NCBI GenBank assembly: GCA_026770705.1
Contig: JANJGN010000009.1
Location: 61,256,001-61,320,000, forward strand
Direction: 5' to 3'
Origin: Isurus oxyrinchus
Lineage: Eukaryota
DNA length: 64,000 nucleotides
Shown here: positions 1 to 47,835 of the stretch, in pieces
How positions within the stretch are numbered: the first letter of the stretch is position 1
Layout: every line of letters begins with the position of its first letter
Notes under the pieces: generated by a model
What the model was told of the DNA's origin: nothing
The model's input: only the letters and a program-made list of their open reading frames with translations
Databases searched by the model: none
Translations under genes and position numbers: made by a program

Positions 1-2086
1 CCCTGTCAACGACCGTGGGTGGAAAACCTCGGTTAAGGAAGAAGGAGGACATGTCAGAGGAACTGTTTTTGAAGGTAGCATCATCGGAACAGATGCGACG
101 AAGGCGAAGGAACTGGGAGAATGGGATGGAGTCCTTACAGGAAGCGGGGTGTGAGGAGCTGTAGTCGAGGTAGCTGTGGGAGTCGGTGGGTTTGTAGTGG
201 ATATTGGTGGACAGTCTATCACCAGAGATTGAGACAGAGAGGTCAAGGAAGGGAAGGGAAGTGTCAGAGATGGACCACGTGAAAATGATGGAGGGGTGGA
301 GATTGGAAGCAAAATTAATAAATTTTTCCAAGTCCCGACGAGAGCATGAAGCAGCACCGAAGTAATCATCGATGTACCGGAGAAAAAGTTGTGGAAGGGG
401 GCCGGGGTAGGACTGCAACAAGGAATGTTCCACATATCCCATAAAGAGACAGGCATAGCTGGGGCCCATGCGGGTACCCATAGCCACACCTTTTATTTGG
501 AGAAAGTGAGAGGAGTTGAAGGAGAAATTGTTCAACGTGAGAACAAGTTCAGCCAGACGGAGGAGAGTAGTGGTGGATGGGGATTGTTCGGGCCTCTGTT
601 CGAGGAAGAAGCTAAGGGCCCTCAGACCATCCTGGTGGGGGATGGAGGTGTAGAGGGATTGGACGTCCATGGTGAAGAGGAAGCGGTTGGAGCCAGGGAA
701 CTGGAAATTGTTGATGTGACGTAAGGTGTCAGAGGAATCACGGATGTAGGTGGGAAGGGACTGGACAAGGGGAGAGAGAAGGGAGTCAAGATAACGAGAA
801 ATGAGTTCTGTGGGGCAGGAGCAAGCTGAGACGATCGGTCTACCAGGGCAGTTCTGTTTGTGGATTTTGGGTAGGAGATAGAAGCGGGCCGTCCGAGGTT
901 GGGCGACTATCAGGTTGGAAGCTGTGGGAGGGAGATCCCCAGAGGAGATGAGGTCAGTGACAGTCCTGGAAACAATGGCTTGATGTTCAGTGGTGGGGTC
1001 ATGGTCCAGGGAGAGGTAGGAGGAAGTGTCTGCGAGTTGACGCTCAGCCTCCGCGAGGTAGAGGTCAGTGCGCCAGACAACAACAGCACCACCCTTGTCA
1101 GCGGGTTTGATGACAATGTCAGGGTTGGACCTGAGAGAATGGAGTGCAGTAAGTTCAGAGAGAGACAGGTTAGAATGGGTGAGAGGAGCAGAGAAATTGA
1201 GACGACTAATGTCGCGCCGACAGTTCTCAATGAAAAGATCAAGAGAAGGTAAGAATCCAGAGGGAGGGGTCCAGGTGGAGGGAGAATATTGGAGATGGGT
1301 AAAAGGATCTGTTGAACTGGGAGAGGACTCCTGCCCAAAGAAGTGAGCCCGGAGACGAAGACGGCGAAAGAAGAGTTCAACATCATGCCGAGCCCGAAAT
1401 TCATTGAGGTGAGGGCGTAAGGGTATGAAACTAAGTCCTTTGCTGAGCACTGAACGTTCAGCATCGGAGAGGGGAAGGTCAGGGGGTATAGTGAATACAC
1501 GGCTGGGGCTGGGATTGGAAGATGGGGTGGGGACGGAGGGACAGGCTGGGGTGGAGGGTCCTAGATGGGTGTTGGTGTCGATGAGTTGTTGGAGCTTGCG
1601 TTCCTTAGCAGTTGAGAGAAAGAGAAAAAGTTTCTTGTTGAGGCGTCGGATGAGCCGAAGGATAAAATGAAACTGGGGGCACGCGCAGCTTTGAAAAAGG
1701 GTACGGCGGTGCTGCTGGAGGGAAAGGTCGAGTGTGTTCATATGGCGGCGCATGGCACTGAGTGTGGATTTCAGAATGTGACGGGAACAGCAGTCTGAGA
1801 AACGTTTTATGTCCCGGAGATACCGGTAATCCTGGGTGGGTTCGAAAGATGAGGGGTGGAATTTCAGTTGAAATCCACGTGGGGAAAGTCGGAGACGGAG
1901 GCAGTCACTGAGAAAGGAGATATGGCTGTGAAAGCGGGTTTTAGTAAACACCTTGTCAAACACTAGGAGGGAAATGGAAAGCAAAGAAGGTGAACAAGGC
2001 AACAGAGAGATACGGAAATCTTGTCGCAGAGAGGAACAGAACTTCTTCAAGGAGATAGGCATTTCTTGAAGAGCAGTGGCAGTCAA
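1..2086 (-). CDS. Second tandem copy of the PLE RT/GIY-YIG ORF (5' part; runs off the window start)
   Basis: Sequence 1-2257 matches 3335-5591 at offset 3334. Only difference noticed is 1380 A vs 4714 G (HDVE vs HDAE). Confidence 0.93.
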   Translation of the reverse strand, partial: MTATALQEMPISLKKFCSSLRQDFRISLLPCSPSLLSISLLVFDKVFTKTRFHSHISFLSDCLRLRLSPRGFQLKFHPSSFEPTQDYRYLRDIKRFSDCCSRHILKSTLSAMRRHMNTLDLSLQQHRRTLFQSCACPQFHFILRLIRRLNKKLFLFLSTAKERKLQQLIDTNTHLGPSTPACPSVPTPSSNPSPSRVFTIPPDLPLSDAERSVLSKGLSFIPLRPHLNEFRARHDVELFFRRLRLRAHFFGQESSPSSTDPFTHLQYSPSTWTPPSGFLPSLDLFIENCRRDISRLNFSAPLTHSNLSLSELTALHSLRSNPDIVIKPADKGGAVVVWRTDLYLAEAERQLADTSSYLSLDHDPTTEHQAIVSRTVTDLISSGDLPPTASNLIVAQPRTARFYLLPKIHKQNCPGRPIVSACSCPTELISRYLDSLLSPLVQSLPTYIRDSSDTLRHINNFQFPGSNRFLFTMDVQSLYTSIPHQDGLRALSFFLEQRPEQSPSTTTLLRLAELVLTLNNFSFNSSHFLQIKGVAMGTRMGPSYACLFMGYVEHSLLQSYPGPLPQLFLRYIDDYFGAASCSRRDLEKFINFASNLHPSIIFTWSISDTSLPFLDLSVSISGDRLSTNIHYKPTDSHSYLDYSSSHPASCKDSIPFSQFLRLRRICSDDATFKNSSSDMSSFFLNRGFPPTVVDR

Positions 2087-2197: not shown

Positions 2198-2236
2198 AGT
2201 TGACGTTTCGAGTCCTCATGACCCTTCGACAGAACT
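2198..2236 (-). ncRNA. Minimal type-I hammerhead ribozyme motif (variant core CUGUCGA)
   Basis: Minus strand AGTT-CTGTCGA-A-GGGTC-ATGAG-GACTC-GAAA-CGTC-AACT: stem I AGUU/AACU, stem II GGGUC/GACUC, GAAA, palindromic ACGU in place of stem III, GUC cleavage triplet. This layout is typical of PLE HHRs. Confidence 0.8.
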
Positions 2237-2639
2237 TGATTTCGAGTCCAGGAAAGAGTTGAAATATAATCTGGTTTAAGGTGTGTGGGGGGGGGGGGGG
2301 GGGGAAGGAGAGAGAGAGAGAGACAGAGGTGCTTGTGTAGACAAACAAGCAGTGATAGAAGCAGATCATCAAAAGATGTCAGTAACAATGGTGCAAAAGA
2401 ACACATAGGTGTTAAAGTTAAAGTTGGTGATATTATCTAAACGAATGTGCTAATTAAGAATGGATGGTAGGGCACTCAAGGTACAGCTCTAGTGGGGGTG
2501 GGGGGAGCATAAAGGATTTTAAAATATTTAAAAATAATGGAAATAGGTGGGAAAAGAAAAATCTATAAAATTTATAGGGAAAAAAAAAAGGGGGAAAAAA
2601 AGGGGGAAACAGAAAGGGGGTGGGGATGGGGGAGGGAGC

Positions 2640-5420
2640 TCACGACCTAAAGTTATTGAATTCAATATTCAGACCGGAAGGCTGTAAGGTGCCTAGTCGG
2701 AAGATGAGGTGTTGTTCCTCCAGTTTGCGTTGGGCTTCACTGGAACAATGCAGTAAGCCAAGGACAGACATGTGGGCAAGAGAGCAGGGTGGAGTGTTAA
2801 AATGGCAAGCCACAGGGAGGTTTGGGTCATTCTTGCGGACAGACCGCAGGTGTTCTGCAAAGCGGTCGCCCAGTTTACGTTTGGTCTCTCCAATGTAGAG
2901 GAGACCACATTGGGAGCAACGAATGCAGTAGACTAAGTTGGGGGAAATGCAAGTGAAATGCTGCTTCACTTGAAAGGAATGTTTGGGCCCTTGGACGGTG
3001 AGGAGAGAGGAAGTGAAGGGGCAGGTGTTACATCTTTTGCGTGGGCATGGGGTGGTGCCATAGGAGGGGGTTGAGGAGTAGGGGGTGATGGAGGAGTGGA
3101 CCAGGGTGTCCTGGAGGGAGCGATCCCTACGGAATGCCGATAAGGGGGGTGAAGGGAAGATGTGTTTGGTGGTGGCATCATGCTGGAGTTGGCGGAAATG
3201 GCGGAGGATGATCCTTTGAATGCGGAGGCTGGTGGGGTGATAAGTGAGGACAAGGGGGACCCTATCATGTTTCTGGGAGGGAGGAGAAGGCGTGAGGGCG
3301 GATGCGCGGGAGATGGGCCGGACACGGTTGAGGGCCCTGTCAACGACCGTGGGTGGAAAACCTCGGTTAAGGAAGAAGGAGGACATGTCAGAGGAACTGT
3401 TTTTGAAGGTAGCATCATCGGAACAGATGCGACGAAGGCGAAGGAACTGGGAGAATGGGATGGAGTCCTTACAGGAAGCGGGGTGTGAGGAGCTGTAGTC
3501 GAGGTAGCTGTGGGAGTCGGTGGGTTTGTAGTGGATATTGGTGGACAGTCTATCACCAGAGATTGAGACAGAGAGGTCAAGGAAGGGAAGGGAAGTGTCA
3601 GAGATGGACCACGTGAAAATGATGGAGGGGTGGAGATTGGAAGCAAAATTAATAAATTTTTCCAAGTCCCGACGAGAGCATGAAGCAGCACCGAAGTAAT
3701 CATCGATGTACCGGAGAAAAAGTTGTGGAAGGGGGCCGGGGTAGGACTGCAACAAGGAATGTTCCACATATCCCATAAAGAGACAGGCATAGCTGGGGCC
3801 CATGCGGGTACCCATAGCCACACCTTTTATTTGGAGAAAGTGAGAGGAGTTGAAGGAGAAATTGTTCAACGTGAGAACAAGTTCAGCCAGACGGAGGAGA
3901 GTAGTGGTGGATGGGGATTGTTCGGGCCTCTGTTCGAGGAAGAAGCTAAGGGCCCTCAGACCATCCTGGTGGGGGATGGAGGTGTAGAGGGATTGGACGT
4001 CCATGGTGAAGAGGAAGCGGTTGGAGCCAGGGAACTGGAAATTGTTGATGTGACGTAAGGTGTCAGAGGAATCACGGATGTAGGTGGGAAGGGACTGGAC
4101 AAGGGGAGAGAGAAGGGAGTCAAGATAACGAGAAATGAGTTCTGTGGGGCAGGAGCAAGCTGAGACGATCGGTCTACCAGGGCAGTTCTGTTTGTGGATT
4201 TTGGGTAGGAGATAGAAGCGGGCCGTCCGAGGTTGGGCGACTATCAGGTTGGAAGCTGTGGGAGGGAGATCCCCAGAGGAGATGAGGTCAGTGACAGTCC
4301 TGGAAACAATGGCTTGATGTTCAGTGGTGGGGTCATGGTCCAGGGAGAGGTAGGAGGAAGTGTCTGCGAGTTGACGCTCAGCCTCCGCGAGGTAGAGGTC
4401 AGTGCGCCAGACAACAACAGCACCACCCTTGTCAGCGGGTTTGATGACAATGTCAGGGTTGGACCTGAGAGAATGGAGTGCAGTAAGTTCAGAGAGAGAC
4501 AGGTTAGAATGGGTGAGAGGAGCAGAGAAATTGAGACGACTAATGTCGCGCCGACAGTTCTCAATGAAAAGATCAAGAGAAGGTAAGAATCCAGAGGGAG
4601 GGGTCCAGGTGGAGGGAGAATATTGGAGATGGGTAAAAGGATCTGTTGAACTGGGAGAGGACTCCTGCCCAAAGAAGTGAGCCCGGAGACGAAGACGGCG
4701 AAAGAAGAGTTCAGCATCATGCCGAGCCCGAAATTCATTGAGGTGAGGGCGTAAGGGTATGAAACTAAGTCCTTTGCTGAGCACTGAACGTTCAGCATCG
4801 GAGAGGGGAAGGTCAGGGGGTATAGTGAATACACGGCTGGGGCTGGGATTGGAAGATGGGGTGGGGACGGAGGGACAGGCTGGGGTGGAGGGTCCTAGAT
4901 GGGTGTTGGTGTCGATGAGTTGTTGGAGCTTGCGTTCCTTAGCAGTTGAGAGAAAGAGAAAAAGTTTCTTGTTGAGGCGTCGGATGAGCCGAAGGATAAA
5001 ATGAAACTGGGGGCACGCGCAGCTTTGAAAAAGGGTACGGCGGTGCTGCTGGAGGGAAAGGTCGAGTGTGTTCATATGGCGGCGCATGGCACTGAGTGTG
5101 GATTTCAGAATGTGACGGGAACAGCAGTCTGAGAAACGTTTTATGTCCCGGAGATACCGGTAATCCTGGGTGGGTTCGAAAGATGAGGGGTGGAATTTCA
5201 GTTGAAATCCACGTGGGGAAAGTCGGAGACGGAGGCAGTCACTGAGAAAGGAGATATGGCTGTGAAAGCGGGTTTTAGTAAACACCTTGTCAAACACTAG
5301 GAGGGAAATGGAAAGCAAAGAAGGTGAACAAGGCAACAGAGAGATACGGAAATCTTGTCGCAGAGAGGAACAGAACTTCTTCAAGGAGATAGGCATTTCT
5401 TGAAGAGCAGTGGCAGTCAA
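2640..5420 (-). CDS. Penelope-like element (Neptune-type) polyprotein: reverse transcriptase + Cys-rich linker + GIY-YIG endonuclease, intact
   Basis: 926-codon open frame (TTG at 5420, first ATG at 5396 giving 918 aa). PLE RT motifs PADKGGAVVVW, FYLLPKIHK, GRPIVS, TMDVQSLYTSIP, QIKGVAMGTRMGPSYA, RYIDD, LPFLDL, YKPTDSHSYL; linker CPRKRCNTC; GIY-YIG LVYCIRCSQCGLLYIGETKRKLGDRFAEH...LEEQHLI..LGTLQPSGLN. Confidence 0.95.
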   Translation of the reverse strand: MTATALQEMPISLKKFCSSLRQDFRISLLPCSPSLLSISLLVFDKVFTKTRFHSHISFLSDCLRLRLSPRGFQLKFHPSSFEPTQDYRYLRDIKRFSDCCSRHILKSTLSAMRRHMNTLDLSLQQHRRTLFQSCACPQFHFILRLIRRLNKKLFLFLSTAKERKLQQLIDTNTHLGPSTPACPSVPTPSSNPSPSRVFTIPPDLPLSDAERSVLSKGLSFIPLRPHLNEFRARHDAELFFRRLRLRAHFFGQESSPSSTDPFTHLQYSPSTWTPPSGFLPSLDLFIENCRRDISRLNFSAPLTHSNLSLSELTALHSLRSNPDIVIKPADKGGAVVVWRTDLYLAEAERQLADTSSYLSLDHDPTTEHQAIVSRTVTDLISSGDLPPTASNLIVAQPRTARFYLLPKIHKQNCPGRPIVSACSCPTELISRYLDSLLSPLVQSLPTYIRDSSDTLRHINNFQFPGSNRFLFTMDVQSLYTSIPHQDGLRALSFFLEQRPEQSPSTTTLLRLAELVLTLNNFSFNSSHFLQIKGVAMGTRMGPSYACLFMGYVEHSLLQSYPGPLPQLFLRYIDDYFGAASCSRRDLEKFINFASNLHPSIIFTWSISDTSLPFLDLSVSISGDRLSTNIHYKPTDSHSYLDYSSSHPASCKDSIPFSQFLRLRRICSDDATFKNSSSDMSSFFLNRGFPPTVVDRALNRVRPISRASALTPSPPSQKHDRVPLVLTYHPTSLRIQRIILRHFRQLQHDATTKHIFPSPPLSAFRRDRSLQDTLVHSSITPYSSTPSYGTTPCPRKRCNTCPFTSSLLTVQGPKHSFQVKQHFTCISPNLVYCIRCSQCGLLYIGETKRKLGDRFAEHLRSVRKNDPNLPVACHFNTPPCSLAHMSVLGLLHCSSEAQRKLEEQHLIFRLGTLQPSGLNIEFNNFRS

Positions 5421-5570: not shown

Positions 5571-8468
5571 TGATTTCGAGTCCAGGAAAGATCCTAATTA
5601 CGTGCATTTTTACAATCCAGCTGTGACAAATTCAATTCAACCATAGAAACCTTCTTAGAATCGGTCTCTCCAATAAATAGTCTGAAGATTTTACTTTTCT
5701 CAGCGCCTGCCTCACACTACATCACACCTAATCGTCCAGTTGATATAATCCTGGAATGCTGCAGCAATATTCCCTGGTGACGTGGATGTTCCTGTCTTCT
5801 GCACGGGTGTTTTGCCTGCCTTTTCAGAGGCAGGCTAAGCAAACACAATTTTAGGGCCATGAGGTACTTTGGTCTGCACTGATTGCTGTTAGGTAAGCAA
5901 ACCTGGCAGCTACTTTGCACCATTCATGCCACTTAATGGGCCAATTGTACTGCAGACTAGCAGCAGATGACTCAGTCAGTGTTAAATGTTTGGTGCGAGT
6001 AACATTGAAGACTTGGAAAACTATCAAAAAGAAAACTTGACAAATAATTGAACTATTCCACAAACAATTGCCACAGCTGGTGCTCAGCGAAACATCATTA
6101 ACAAAAGTATCCTTGAAAAGTGTGTTGGTTACTGCTTTTAACCAGTTTTTCTCCAGAGAGACTTTCTAAAAGCATTTTTTAAAGTATTTAATTAAGGTTA
6201 GGGAATTTTAACTGCAGCTCTAATTCCAGAGCAGAAGGGTTTTACTCTGTATCTGAATGTGTTATATATGGCCTGGGAGTTTTGATGCATAGGAAATAGG
6301 AAGACTTTCCCAAGCAGTTACATTCCTCAGCTTGCTAATTTTATTAATTCTAAAGAGAAGAATAGGGAGATAGAGGGCAAGAAGGAAATGATAAAAGTTA
6401 TGAAGTGGGATGGAGTGATCTGGCAACACCCATCATCTAGGCTCAGACAACAATAGATACGACAATACTCCTTCAAACTGATGCATGTTCATAACCTGCA
6501 AAAAATTCCTCATGGATGGCACATCATAAATAGCATGCATTTTAACAAATTGTCTGACTGCCACAGTTGACTGCTGTTAGATACTAAGGTTATCTTGTAA
6601 ATATTTTATTTAATTAGATTAAAACTGCTGTCTGTTGTGGAAAGAGAAATAATGTGGTGAGGTTAATAATGAAGATGGGATTGCTAGGTAGGCCTAAGAC
6701 CAGATGGAAAGATTTGGTGGCAAGAAACATAAACACAATGGAATAGGGTGAAGAATGAGTGATTGACAGGAGATAATGGAGAAGAGCAATCAACCAGAGC
6801 TGTGGCGATCCCAAGTAAAATAGGAGAAGCCAAGAGAAGAACAACAACAAGATTAAAACTGCTATGCTTCAATATGGAAAGGCACAAACCAAAATGGAAT
6901 TAAACATCCAGTTTACCATTTTTGTATATCTTATTTATTTTATTGTCTCAGCCATTATTGTTCATATTAAGCTTCTGTAATGAGCTGATGGAGTGTATTT
7001 ATGCCATAACTTTCTAACTTCCATTGCTCTTCACTTTACCACCGTCAGTAAAAGTCAATTTTTTTTTTAGATTTTAACAAGCGGATCATCTAAAGAAAAC
7101 ATAATATCCTAGGAAGGTTGTTTCCAACTGGTCAGCTCCATATACATTTGTTATGTTCTTACTATGGATTCGCTCAGCTCAGCGAACATGGTTGCACACC
7201 TATCTACTGAGGGGTGAGTTGATAAACTATACAATGTGGATGAAGAGACCGTTGTGAAGTGAAACACATGCTGTTTATTCATATAAGCAAAAGAGCACAA
7301 TCACATGCTTGCTTCTCAAACCAGGTCAACTGTCAGGAATTTTGGGCAGATGACTCCTGGGAGGGAGGCCTCAGATAAATCATCTGATGTCATAGAACTA
7401 CGACGTTCGACATTTTTAAAGAAGCCTCCAGAGAGACTGAATTTGTAAATAGTTTATTTCTTTAAATAGTTGATATATTGTAATGATTGTAATTTGTACT
7501 TTTGAGTAAAGGAAGAGGTTTGAAGTAATCTGATTTGCAATACACCTTTAAGAAAATGCGAGCAGATTGACCACATGATTGTATTACCCAATTGCTGTGT
7601 AGCACGGACCACATTGTTAATCAGTAGTTTAGAATGGGTTCTCCATTGTGAATGCCAGCTTCAGCATCTTGCTGAGGTCTAAATTCATTCCTGACAACAA
7701 TCTTTTTTGAATGACATCTTCATTAATACCAGATACTAATCGGTCTCTTAACATGTCGTTAATCAATGTCTAGAATTAACAAAGTTCTGTCAATTGTTTC
7801 AAGGCAGCTACATAACAAGCGACTGTCTCTCCAGGGACGTGACACCTCAAATTAAATTTAAAACGCAGCATTGTTACTGAGGATTTCAGATTAAATTGAC
7901 TTTTCACAATGTTTACAACACATCAATGTTCTTGGAATCTGGGGCGTTGGGTGCCATTAGACTACGAATTAGGCTTTTACTGCCACATATTGATAAGAGA
8001 ATCGCCTGTCTTTTCTCCTCCCCTGCTATGCCGTTAGCCAAAAAGAATGTAAGGCGTTCAGTGTACTGTGATCAGCTATTGGTGGTCTGATCAAATGGTT
8101 CGACACAGCCAAAGTGCAGCACATTGAAGGGAGATAGCTCCAATGACTATGATGAAGGCTGCACTTACAAGCACCCGCAAGGTATGGCTGATTTGCTTCA
8201 GGTTAATTTCCGTGGCTTGCCATGGTGTCATCGAGTAGTTTTGTTTTGCCTTGTCACCAGTTGTTATGTTCTTACTATGGACTCACTCTGCTCACCAAAC
8301 ATGGCTGCACACCTATCTACCAAGGGGCGAGTTGGTTAACTAAATGATGTGGATGAAGAGACTGTTGTGAAGTGAAACATGTTGTTTATTCATATAAGCA
8401 ACAGAGCACAAAAACAGAATTACCTGAAAAAACTCAGCAGGTCTGGCAGCATTGACAGAGAAGAAAAG

Positions 8469-8507
8469 AGTTGACATTTCGAGTCCTCATGACCCTTCAA
8501 CAGAACT
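8469..8507 (-). ncRNA. Hammerhead motif (CUGUUGA core)
   Basis: AGTT CTGTTGA AGGGTCATGAGGACTC GAAA TGTC AACT. Confidence 0.65.
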
Positions 8508-8968: not shown

Positions 8969-9007
8969 AGTTGATGTTTCGAGTCCTCATGACCCTTCAA
9001 CAGAACT
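8969..9007 (-). ncRNA. Hammerhead motif (CUGUUGA core)
   Basis: AGTT CTGTTGA AGGGTCATGAGGACTC GAAA CATC AACT. Confidence 0.6.
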
Positions 9008-10056: not shown

Positions 10057-10185
10057 ATTTCTGAAGAAGAGCCATACGGATTTGAAATGTTAACTCTGTT
10101 TCTCTCTCCACAGATGCTGCTGAATTTTTCCATCATTTTCTGTTTTTGCTTCAGATTTCCAGCATCCGCAGTACTTTGCTATTAT
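10057..10185 (+). repeat. Older PLE pseudo-LTR fragment with degenerate HHR (canonical CUGAAGA core)
   Basis: CTGAAGAAGAGCCATACGGATTTGAAATGTTAACTCTG...CAGATGCTGC...GATTTCCAGCATCCGCAG. Confidence 0.75.
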
Positions 10186-25780: not shown

Positions 25781-28009
25781 GGCTGGGAGTTTCCATGCCT
25801 GCTGCTGTGCTGGACAAGATGGCGAGAAGGACAAAAATCAGTTTCACAAGGTTGTGAAACCAGTTTGTAATTTTCTGATCAGCCTGTCGATGGTGGGCTG
25901 CATTTCCTGCCATCAGACATTGGGAACCTCATTGTAATACATCAGCATATCAGCATAAGGCTAGACCGCCGGACTCACCCCTCCCCGCACCACCCCCTGC
26001 TGGATCACTCACCCACGTCTGTGGGAAAACACGCTGACATGTTTCACAACAGCATATATAAGGTGTGCACTTGGCAGTCTGCGCTTCATTCGGGATTTCA
26101 AGGTTTGTTTGCCTACCTTGCTTCGGTCAGCACTTGATCATCAGTGCCAGGTTTCACAGACAGCACCACATCACTTTTAGGGGGGGTCACAGATAGGTCT
26201 CTACCTACCAGATCAGCAAAATGTGGGTAAATTTTCAACAGCTGCAGGGCCAGGGTTTGCTTGGGGGGAGGGGAAGAAGTGGCCTCAGGCAAGGGAAGAG
26301 GCTGCAGGATGAGTGCTGTACTGGGGAAAGAGGGTGTGTGTGGGAGCACATGTTGATCTGTGCAACTGGCCTCAAGATGGTAATGCCTGAGTAGGGAGTC
26401 TCCAGAGGAGATGGGACCAGATGAACTTGAGGGTATGTGTGTGAGAATGGATGGTAATGTCCCTTGAGCTGGCAATAAGTGAGATGCCAGTGAATGTGTG
26501 ATGTGCTTGAGTGTGCGATCGGATGAGATGGTTGCCATATCCTGGCTGCACGGGTAAGATCATCCGTCCTCTATCTTCATTGGCTGGCCAACCTCTTCTG
26601 TGCAGCTTTGGCACTGATCACCACTGTCATCGCCTACCAAGCCAGAGCGGTAATGTTGCTGCCCCTCCTGTGGCCATAGCAGGGGTCGAGGACATCACAG
26701 CGGTGCTCCACAGCATCCAAAAAGCGCTCAAGGGCTGCAGTCGTCTTGCTTTTTGGGGCCACGTTTTCTTTGCTGCAGTCCTGGGCTGGAAGCATTGTGT
26801 GGCTATACTTTAAATGTGGTGCCTGGCGTGATAAAGCGGTGAGATGACAGTGTGGCAGAAAAACCGGAGACCGCCCGCCATCGAAACAGGGTGAATCCCT
26901 GGAATCCCGCCAACTCCAGCATGATGCCACCACCAAATACATCTTCCCATCCCCCCCCCCCGACGGCATTCCATAGGGATCGTTCCCTCCGGGACATCCT
27001 GGTCCACTCCTCCATCACCCCCTACACCTCAACCCCCACCTATGGCACCTCCCCATGCCCACGCAAAAGATGCAACACCTGCCCCTTCACTTCCTCTCTC
27101 CTCATCGTCCAAGGGCCCAAACACTCCTTTCAATTGAAGCAGCATTTCACTTGCATTTCCCCCAACTTAGTCTCCTCTACAGGAGAGACCAAACGTAAAC
27201 TGGGCCACCGCTTTGCAGAACACCTGTGATCTGTCCGCAAGAAAGACCCAAACCTCCCTGTCGCTTGCCATTTTAACACTCCACCCTGCTCTCTTGCCCA
27301 CATGTCTGTCCTTGGCTTGCTGCATTGTTCCAGTGAAGCCCAACGCAAACTGGAGGAACAGCACCTCATCTTCCGACTAGGCACTTTACAGCCTTCCGGA
27401 CTGAATATTGAATTCAACAACTTTAGACCTTGAGCTCCCTCCTCCATCCCCACCCCCTTTCTGTTTCTTCCCCCTTCCTTTTGTTTTTTCCAGTAATTTA
27501 TATAGATTTTTTTCCCACCTATTTCCATTATTTTTAAATCTACATCTTTTATGCCCTGTTAGTCTTTCCACCCCACCCCCACTAGAGCTATACCTTGCGT
27601 GTCCTGCCATCCATTCTTAATTAGCACATTCATTTAGATAATATCACTACCTTCAACACCTCTTTGTTCTTCTGTCTGTGACATCTTTTGATTATCTGCT
27701 CCTATCACTGCTTGCTTGTCCCTACAACCGCCCCCCCCCCCCCCCTTAAACCAGCTTATATTTCCCTCCTCTCCTAATATTCACTCAGTTCTGTTGAAGG
27801 GTCATTAGGACTCAAAATGTCAACTCTTTTCTTCTCCGCTGATGCTGCCAGACCTGCTGAGTTTTTCCAGGTAATTCGGTTTTTGTTTTGAATCCCTGGA
27901 ATGCCTAATTAATGCAGCAGGTTTGGGACAATACAGCATGAAAAGCTGCCATTGCAGCCAGCAAAATGTGATTTCCCTGCCCGCTACCGCACTTAGTTCA
28001 AATCTGCTC
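25781..28009 (-). mobile_element. Non-autonomous Harbinger-type element with Myb/SANT relic, interrupted by a PLE
   Basis: Reverse-homologous to 58430-59691; 3-bp TSD ATG; relic ALERFLDAVEHRCDVLDP..RRGSNITALAW. Confidence 0.75.
26906..27888 (+). mobile_element. 5'-truncated PLE copy (GIY-YIG region, 3'UTR, HHR relic at 27787-27825)
   Basis: High similarity to the reverse complement of ~2135-3195; flanked by the direct repeat TGAATCCCTGGAAT (26892-26905 and 27889-27902). Confidence 0.93.
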
Positions 28010-33410: not shown

Positions 33411-33892
33411 GTAAGAAGTGAGAATGCCACAATTTGGGTGGATTTCTACCTGGTGCGACTTCCAACAGAAATTCTTTATGATGCTGCACAGGAGAGTCTA
33501 TAGCAAGCTTTGGTGGTGCTCGTGGCCGCCCCTGGAAATTCTGCTGAGCACGTGCCTGATAGGCTTGGCAGCTGAGAGCTGCCATATGTCGTAACAGGTC
33601 TTAGGAAGACCAAGTGTGGACAGTTCCAGAGATGATTGATTACCTTTCAAATCAGGCCCTAACCGTGTTCAGTGGCACTGTTTTTTCATCCTATGCCAGC
33701 TTCAGGGGTCGCTGTTTCTCTGAATACAATTCATCGGGTCAAAGTGCTTCTGTTGCACCGTTACAGATGGGACTGCCCAACTCAATTAAGGAAATTACTT
33801 GGATATCCTAAATTTCAGATGGGGTCAAGTCTGGGTCTCTGTGGTGATCAGATGTTCTGCTGGTGATGGTGCAGGGCTCCAAGAATTTAGAC

Positions 33893-34102
33893 AAAAACAA
33901 AAATACCTGGAAAAACTCAGCAGATCTGATAGCGTCTGCGGAGAGGAATACAGTTAATGTTTAGAGTCCATATGAAGAGTCTTCATATGGACTCGAAATG
34001 TCAACTGTATTCCTCTCTGCAGATGCTGTCAGACCTGCTGAGTTTTTCCAGATATTTTTGTTTTTGTCTAGATTTCCAGCATCCACAGTATTTTGCTTTT
34101 AT
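33893..34102. mobile_element. Fold-back PLE pseudo-LTR insert
   Basis: Long inverted arms centred on ATATGAAGAGTCTTCATAT; flanked by the 16-bp direct repeat CTCCAAGAATTTAGAC (33877-33892 and 34103-34118). Confidence 0.85.
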
Positions 34103-40140: not shown

Positions 40141-40230
40141 CGAAGGGTCATGAGGACTCGAAACGTCAACTCTTTTCTTCTCCGCCGATGCTGCCAGACC
40201 TGCTGAGTTTTTCCAGGTAATTCTGTTTTG
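40141..40230 (+). mobile_element. 90-bp PLE insert (truncated HHR + 5'UTR)
   Basis: Near-identical to the reverse complement of ~2139-2228; flanked by the direct repeat GTCTGAATTACCTG (40127-40140 and 40231-40244). Confidence 0.9.
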
Positions 40231-41381
40231 GTCTGAATTACCTGTTGTTTTACCATGACATTTTCTTTCTTGGGAAAGACAGATGCCCAGTATTCATTAA
40301 ATGTTTCAGCTATGCCCTCCGCCACCACCTGTAAATCCATTATCAGGCCCTAATCGATGCTACTCCTCCTTTTACCGTCCTTTTATTATTTATATTCCTA
40401 TAGAAGGATTCCTTTTTATGTTAGCTGCCAGTCTCTTTTCATACTTTATCTTTGCTTCTGTTATTTGTTTCTTCACCTCTCTTCTGAAGCTTCTATATTC
40501 AGCTTGGTCTTCAATTGTACTTTCTATCTGATACCTGTCATAAGAATACGTTTCCTTCTTTATCTTAATTTCTATCTCCCAACCAGGGAGCTCTGGATTT
40601 GTTTGCCCTACACTTCTTTTCAGAGGGAATGTACCTTGACTGTGCCTGAATTATCCCATGTTTTGAGATAACCCATTGATCAGCTTCTATTTTTCCTGCC
40701 AACCTTTGACTCCAATTTATTTTGCCCAGATCCATTCTTACCCGATTGAAGTTGGCTTTTCTCCAGTTATTTTTTTTTTCTTACTCTGGACTGTCCTTTG
40801 TCCTTTTCCATAGTCCGCCAAAACTTTATAATATAATGATTGCTGACCCCTAAATGTTCTCCTATTGACTCTTGACCATCTTGATCTGCCTCATTTCTAA
40901 GAACTACATCTAGCAGTGCCCCCTTCCTCATTGGATTAGAAACGTACTACAATAGAAAATTTCCCTGAACACATTTTAGGAACGCTTTCCCCTCTCTTCC
41001 CTTTACACTATTATTATCCCAGTCTATATTTGGACAAATAAAGTCCCCCATTATAAGTGCTCTATAGTTTTTGCAACTCTGTGATTTCCTTGTAAATTTG
41101 TCCTTCTACACTCTTCCCACTAATTGGTAGGCTATAGGCTACATCAAGCAATGCAAATGCACCTTTTTTTGGTCCTTACCTCTAGCCAGATAGCTTCTGT
41201 CATTGATCCCTGTGGGACATTCTGTTTCTCCAGAATTGCAATGTTCTTCTTAATCAATACTGCCACTCCTCTTCGTTTTCTTTCTTTCCTATCTTTCCTG
41301 AACACCTAGCATCCAGGGATATTTAACACCTAGTCCTGCCCTTCTTTCAGTCAGATCTCTGTCATATTTCCACATAGCAGT

Positions 41382-47660: not shown

Positions 47661-47835
47661 AACAAAAACAGAATTACCTGGAAAAACCCAGCAGGTCTGG
47701 CAGCATCGGCGGAGAAGAAAAGAGTTGACGTTTCGAGTCCTCACGACCCTTCGACAGATGCTGCCAGACCTGCTGGGTTTTTCCAGGTAATTCTGTTTTT
47801 GTTTTGGATTTCCAGCATCCGCAGTTTTTTTTGTT
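47661..47835. mobile_element. Young fold-back PLE insert containing an HHR motif (47723-47756, minus)
   Basis: Near-perfect inverted arms; flanked by the direct repeat ATTATTCTAAACAA (47647-47660 and 47836-47849). Confidence 0.9.

Follow-up and report, generated by a model that had tools for sequence, protein, structure and literature searches.

The window, i.e., the whole stretch of 64,000 nucleotides that was analysed, carries on its minus strand a tandem insertion of a Penelope-like element, in which two ORF copies flank a pLTR with a hammerhead motif. The relevant features of the window are the following:

1..2062, minus strand: second tandem ORF copy, which runs past the window edge and shows 1 difference in 2257 nt relative to the first
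2198..2236, minus strand: hammerhead motif of the minimal type-I form with U at position 6 (U6), in the pLTR between the two tandem ORFs
2201..2202, minus strand: predicted cut site, after C17 (2202), between 2202 and 2201 (numbering according to excerpts of PMC4209133)
2229, minus strand: position 6 of the hammerhead core, where U replaces A
2640..5396, minus strand: intact 918-aa ORF with RT and C-terminal GIY-YIG, its first ATG 170 nt after C3
5532..5570, minus strand: hammerhead identical to the 2198 copy, in the upstream pLTR
8469..8507, minus strand: CUGUUGA copy whose palindrome is gone (CpG decay), in the short 3' end of an older insertion
8969..9007, minus strand: CUGUUGA copy with an AUC triplet, after which the ORF region begins and continues to ~8733
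10057..10095, plus strand: decayed older-subfamily copy with a canonical CUGAAGA
27787..27825, plus strand: CUGUUGA copy without G12, at the 3' end of a 5'-truncated insertion from ~26907
40141..40232, plus strand: young copy truncated within the core (from N7), uninformative on position 6
47723..47757, minus strand: CUGUCGA copy in which an inverted arm joined at C3 replaces the 5' strand of stem I

The RT of the 918-aa ORF contains DKG and YIDD, and its GIY-YIG domain, which holds two internal cysteines, is preceded by a CX4CXXC linker at aa 792. Pfam recognized RVT_1 in this ORF with an E value of 6e-08 and GIY-YIG with an E value of 9e-04, the latter at 19.9 bits and thus below the cut-off of 22.6. 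A CX2-5CxxC linker precedes GIY-YIG in elements of the Neptune/Nematis type and is absent in the Penelope/Poseidon type (excerpts of PMC8557442). Judged by the features given there, the element is an endonuclease-bearing (EN+) Penelope-like element of the Neptune/Nematis type. The copies also show other traits of EN+ Penelope-like elements, namely partial tandems, inverted arms truncated at the 5' end and an optional tail of 30-40 bp. Since the tandem units differ at a single one of the 2257 positions, the insertion must be very young. Its two hammerheads lie 3334 nt apart and bracket the intact ORF, i.e., they occupy the pLTRs of an RT-GIY-YIG element. The insertion with the 5532 hammerhead begins at 5591, 56 nt ahead of the cut site.

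Read along the minus strand, stem I of the 2198..2236 motif starts at 2236 and C3 is located at 2232. The motif is composed of a CUGUCGA core, an extra A ahead of a 5-bp stem II with a 5-nt loop, GAAA, an ACGU palindrome (CG), GUC and a 4-bp stem I. With its pLTR location, type-I order, short stem I, extra base between positions 9 and 10.1, G10.1-C11.1 pair, GAAA-CG-UH and palindromic stem III, it resembles the min-HHR motifs described in excerpts of PMC4209133, from which it is distinguished by the U at position 6. Its stem I (4 bp), stem II (5 bp) and loop (5 nt) fall within the ranges of the min-HHR descriptor (3-7, 3-7, and 3-10, respectively), and G10.1-C11.1, the extra base after A9 and GAAANNUH with a palindromic 15.2-16.2 are all present. 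However, the first core box, CUGANGA, reads CUGUYGA in all six window copies, and the motif is therefore filed as a derived homolog and not as a canonical member of the class. Its descent from a canonical motif is apparent from older subfamilies, which have A6 with the same stems. As the descriptor for Penelope-like elements demands 'cuganga' (Cervera and De la Pena 2014, excerpts of PMC4209133), U6 motifs are missed by it. Core variants do exist within the class, i.e., U3-A8 in Penelope elements (excerpts of PMC4209133). A6, which was a search requirement, is found in each of the 56 representative motifs shown in Fig. S3 of PMC4209133, none of which is from a cartilaginous fish. The covariance models of Rfam matched neither the U6 motif nor a canonical A6 copy; since the latter was not matched either, Rfam does not seem to model the min-HHR class and is uninformative on the U6 motif.

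The original prediction described six copies of a young family that span the core, at 2198, 5532, 8469, 8969, 27787, and 47723, and U6 is indeed present in every one of them. Six matches to the U6 motif in the window compare with 0.13 expected from shuffles. They represent about four independent insertions; a single tandem insertion accounts for both 2198 and 5532, one in each of its pLTRs, and 8469 and 8969 look like one partial tandem. CUGUCGA, which had been put forward as the family-wide core, is found in three copies (2198, 5532, 47723), but the other three (8469, 8969, 27787) read CUGUUGA. Similarly, GUC and the stems were said to be largely retained, but 8969 has AUC, and in 47723 the 5' strand of stem I is missing because of an inversion junction at C3. 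G12 is lost in 27787, and the ACGU palindrome is intact in three of the six copies and lost by CpG decay in the others. The older copy at 10061 has the canonical CUGAAGA reported for it, but the nearest A6 ancestor reads CUGAUGA instead.

To place these copies in the genome, a pattern with positions 6 and 7 left free and one stem II variant fixed was searched over 4.98 Gb, which yielded 95,463 matches (control, 0). Among these, 1,888 have A6 and 2,438 have C or G at position 6, which leaves, by subtraction, 91,137 with U6 (95.5%). As the pattern fixes that stem II variant, A6 subfamilies are underrepresented in this count. An unselected sample was obtained by a profile search of 139 stretches of 10 kb (1.39 Mb), which gave 156 hits. 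Of the 138 hits that could be assigned to a subfamily, 96 cover the core, and these comprise 68 U6, 26 A6 and two gapped copies. Part of the window is held by 23 public runs, all as contigs, one of which is recorded as RNA. The motif is covered by contigs of four runs (with four organism labels), which list no alternative letter at 2229, but the common variant at 2228 is unlisted as well, so that the table is blind at that spot.

Subfamilies S1 to S5 were sorted by the sequence downstream of the core, and their age was estimated by median non-CpG divergence. S1 (13%) has A6 in CUGAAGA, and S2 (9%) has mostly A6, mostly in CUGAUGA. S3 and S4 (5%) have U6 in CUGUUGA, and S5 (1.3%) has U6, mostly in CUGUCGA. 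Copies near the S2/S3 boundary match one another except at position 6. In a tree of 120 copies that keep an upstream anchor, built with positions 6 and 7 masked, A versus non-A required three changes, one of which is a lone reversion within the youngest group, as compared with a mean of 23.1 after shuffling; support in this tree is weak (three of 115 branches well supported) and the direction of change comes from divergence, as there is no root. Since A6 marks the older subfamilies of the same lineage, the A6U change arose in a source element and, as judged from the subfamily sequences, every later wave carried it. This supports the proposal that U6 was inherited from an active source, as all younger subfamilies are fixed for it and the older ones have A6. 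Post-insertion decay as the origin of U6 is rejected by the genome counts, the subfamily ladder and the tree. Amplification continued after A6U, to about 90,000 U6 copies.

Copies with C6 (L061-L090) were also encountered. They mostly read CUGCUGA, which is the same core as in the phage Bcep176 variant, and they occur on several subfamily backgrounds. As a baseline for recurrent mutation, 1,546 genome matches have a base other than C at position 3. A separate C6 subfamily was considered and rejected, as the C6 copies are found on many backgrounds and represent 10 changes on the tree. In one inverted insertion (L089/L090), C6 is present in both arms, which implies that some source elements carried it. 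Thus, the C6 copies are partly the result of recurrent mutation and partly derived from minor source lineages.

Constraint on the motif after A6U was assessed along a ladder of 10 hand-picked groups (5-7 copies each), taken as one line of descent. Across the nine groups after A6U, no change occurred in the 10 other core bases, in stem I or in the palindrome, and the single change in stem II, from A-U to G-U, kept the pairing. The catalytic G8 and G12 and the C3-G8 pair did not change along the ladder. Meanwhile, the seven free positions (N7, loop II, H17) accumulated seven changes, or five without two CpG artefacts, the 17 bases past stem I accumulated 10, and 29 upstream columns 27. In these hand-picked groups and after CpG correction, the binomial p was 0.012 for core versus free positions, 0.001 for all constrained versus free positions and 0.001 for core versus near flanks; a block of 43 bases further downstream was slow as well, however, with five changes, and the core is therefore constrained, though not demonstrably beyond other pLTR signals. 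As the motif lies outside the ORF, within its 5' UTR, coding does not explain its conservation. Intact copies have a GAAA-CG-UC box, which is the same in 10 out of 10 subfamily groups save for U or C at position 17, and the ACGU palindrome is kept in all 10. An older family with CUGAUGA and two two-sided changes in stem II was recognized by a pattern built from copies met in the unselected profile search; it has 408 matches against 0 in the control, and A6 is found in 88 of 100 among the matches listed. Covariation in stem II, by which the prediction could be checked, is thus seen across families, but the U6 lineage itself shows no more than the single one-sided change.

When the motif is folded as an isolated 41-mer, stems I and II are predicted with pairing values of 0.59 and 0.98, respectively. 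In the first U6 subfamilies, a U6-A15.1 pair is predicted that closes the core into a rod. Another pairing that U6 might have created, i.e., of G5-A9 with U16.1-C1.3, was rejected (predicted probability at most 0.03). When the 30 nt upstream are added to the fold, S2 to S4 retain the predicted stems I and II and S5b to S5f lose them (0.04 or less). However, with 55 nt, three out of four A6 copies of S2 also lose the predicted stems, so that upstream blocking in S5 is only a hint. Dimer-dependent cleavage, suggested in the original prediction from the palindrome, is a published model for the min-HHR class (excerpts of PMC4209133). The duplex of the ACGU palindrome is predicted at only -3.1 kcal/mol, and when two motifs were cofolded, the canonical dimer was not the best predicted structure, which is no evidence either way.

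The upstream sequence itself (window 2237-2265, minus strand; L007, L011, L002, L014) stepwise approached the 3' half of the motif. In the youngest subfamilies, this mimic repeats GGACUCGAAA and AACUCUUU of the motif, and folding predictions suggest that it blocks stems I and II. It could have arisen either because a blocking fold was selected for or because template switching copied the sequence.

The 3' ends of the copies lie 63-119 nt past the predicted cut site in 26 out of 30 unselected loci, the other four continuing into the ORF, and they form two clusters, ~66-72 and ~99-109 nt beyond that site. This arrangement agrees with the two start sites and the tail described for the anole element (excerpts of PMC11167929). 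Since the copies end beyond the cut site, their templates were uncut RNA. The 3' ends of A6 copies are located as in U6 copies. Hence, the idea that attenuation is useful because the element must be read through agrees with copies ending past the cut site, but A6 copies do likewise, and the property is not specific to U6.

Cutting in the 5' pLTR would be expected to leave insertions that begin at the cut and run on into the ORF. Genome-wide, 217 junctions were counted at the cut site versus 93 and 89 three bases to either side. This 2.4-fold excess was rejected as a footprint of cutting, as none of 30 inspected cut-site junctions continues into the ORF, against the four of 30 unselected loci, and inversions or deletions of 6 nt with microhomology account for most of them. 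Similarly, none of 61 young unselected copies starts at the cut site. Altogether, the junction counts, the 30 inspected junctions and the 61 young unselected copies revealed no genomic footprint of cutting. This is weak evidence, since cut RNA may simply go uncopied and since the anole motif cuts with protein and yet no RNA ends at its site.

In contrast to the cut site, where none of them starts, the 5' edge of the motif is where 19 of the 61 young unselected copies begin (-10 to +2 from C3). Inversion points also cluster there (L091-L170, L231-L290; window 47757), and many inverted arms stop where stem I begins, at its first base. This cluster of junctions could be due to a transcription start or to microhomology shared by the two strands of stem I. 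In older subfamilies, the bases past the cut site resemble a branch point, a pyrimidine tract and a CAG acceptor (window 10088-10113, L031-L060). The AG of this acceptor-like stretch is lost from S4 on. In the Penelope element of D. virilis, an intron ends at its hammerhead.

A natural change at position 6 has been described before. The A6C hammerhead of phage Bcep176 cuts slowly (Perreault 2011, excerpts of PMC3088659; Naghdi 2020, excerpts of PMC7151607), and A6C hammerheads recover good rates in Mn2+ (excerpts of the same two papers). Like this phage motif, the mako motif has a natural change at core position 6 with the remaining core intact. However, the phage variant is C6, a single sequence of measured low activity and with a preference for Mn2+, whereas the mako change is U6, with a presumed effect on cleavage, and has become fixed across a family that numbers ~90,000 copies. 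Single mutants in the CUGA turn have low activity, and in pairwise mutagenesis such mutants were unrescued by any second change except the C3-G8 swap (excerpts of PMC9901934). No natural A6U was found in the literature searched, which did not cover Lunse et al. 2017, the paper likeliest to list one; the available parts of PMC11014351, PMC4176186 and bioRxiv 2026.07.22.740005 add nothing on position 6.

Another close counterpart is the PAc hammerhead of the anole Poseidon element, which cuts only with protein (Frangieh 2024, excerpts of PMC11167929) and whose cutting is dispensable for PAc insertion in vitro (excerpts of PMC11167929). Both elements have a hammerhead in the pLTR, two downstream 3' end points ~30-40 nt apart and copies made from uncut RNA. 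However, the PAc motif overlaps the start of the ORF, whereas the mako motif lies 170 nt ahead of the ATG. Furthermore, the mako element has a Neptune/Nematis linker and an altered core, whereas for PAc cleavage was demonstrated. Naiad elements thrive without hammerheads, and the role of hammerheads in Penelope-like elements has been called unclear (excerpts of PMC8557442).

Both readings offered by the original prediction, an attenuated ribozyme or a non-cleaving recognition element, remain, as the sequence would fit either. We give about an even chance to the motif being a slowed, conditionally active ribozyme, since position 6 changes slow the measured systems and since the catalytic bases and the palindrome are kept. 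A6 changed to U in a source copy of an active Penelope-like element, the change was passed to all later subfamilies, and, to judge from other position 6 changes, it would lower the cleavage rate. The slowed motif may cut rarely, e.g., as a dimer or helped by the protein of the element. Cutting within the 3' pLTR would detach the start sites for reverse transcription from the body of the template, and slow cutting would thus be cheap or helpful to the element. The remaining core is probably still under selection, as would be expected if residual cleavage or the complete fold were of continued use. The main rival, which we consider possible but somewhat unlikely, is that the motif no longer cleaves and that the hammerhead-shaped fold persists because it serves as an RNA signal, i.e., for protein binding or as a boundary for cDNA synthesis or template switching. 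The absence of a trace of cutting in the genome, the copies that begin at the 5' edge of the motif, the core predicted to be closed into a rod by U6-A15.1, and the occurrence of C6 on several backgrounds, once in both arms of one insertion, are all consistent with it, as are insertion of the anole element in vitro without cutting and the existence of Naiad without hammerheads. However, G8, G12, the C3-G8 pair and the palindrome are unchanged, which is a ribozyme-like pattern, and position 17 is only U or C, both of which are cleavable; then again, a protein that reads the whole fold could yield the same conservation.

That A6U was near-neutral, with dimerisation, protein or metal ions compensating so that cleavage is about as efficient as in the A6 ancestor, would agree with the recovery of A6C hammerheads in Mn2+ and with the rest of the motif being unchanged. 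Nevertheless, it appears very unlikely in view of the failure of second changes other than the C3-G8 swap to rescue CUGA-turn mutants, and of A6 being present in 56 out of 56 motifs in Fig. S3 of PMC4209133, where the search required it. It is hardly probable, too, that the hammerhead is vestigial and its bases are conserved because the pLTR has some other role, i.e., as a promoter, a splice signal or a DNA-level endonuclease site. Change has been as slow in other blocks of the pLTR as in the core, and older subfamilies have the look of a branch point, pyrimidine tract and acceptor past the cut site, but the free and fixed positions track the hammerhead map base by base, and the changes in stem II keep pairing, which a DNA motif would not predict. 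An extension of these readings that we regard as unlikely is that in this lineage the hammerhead ceased to be a cutter and became a switch or binding signal, A6U coming first and the upstream blocking sequence later, which together would shield the template and partly drive the burst. If so, hammerhead cleavage would be a brake on the transposition of Penelope-like elements and not a step in it.

The lineage offers an ancestral and a descendant motif, alike save for position 6, as a ready pair for probing the role of the hammerhead, and, given the continued amplification after A6U, this role is testable with two short RNAs. In this genome alone, some 91,000 motifs escape searches with descriptors that require CUGANGA. 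The advance is modest, as core variants of the class and a natural A6C have been published already.

Two further observations concern other copies. In the window, 33884-34074 forms a near-perfect hairpin in which two pLTR ends from an older subfamily, placed head to head, meet within the hammerhead, and spurious Rfam microRNA matches arise from this hairpin. Elsewhere (L201:1500), the 5' side of a truncated copy abuts a TTAGGG telomeric repeat tract.
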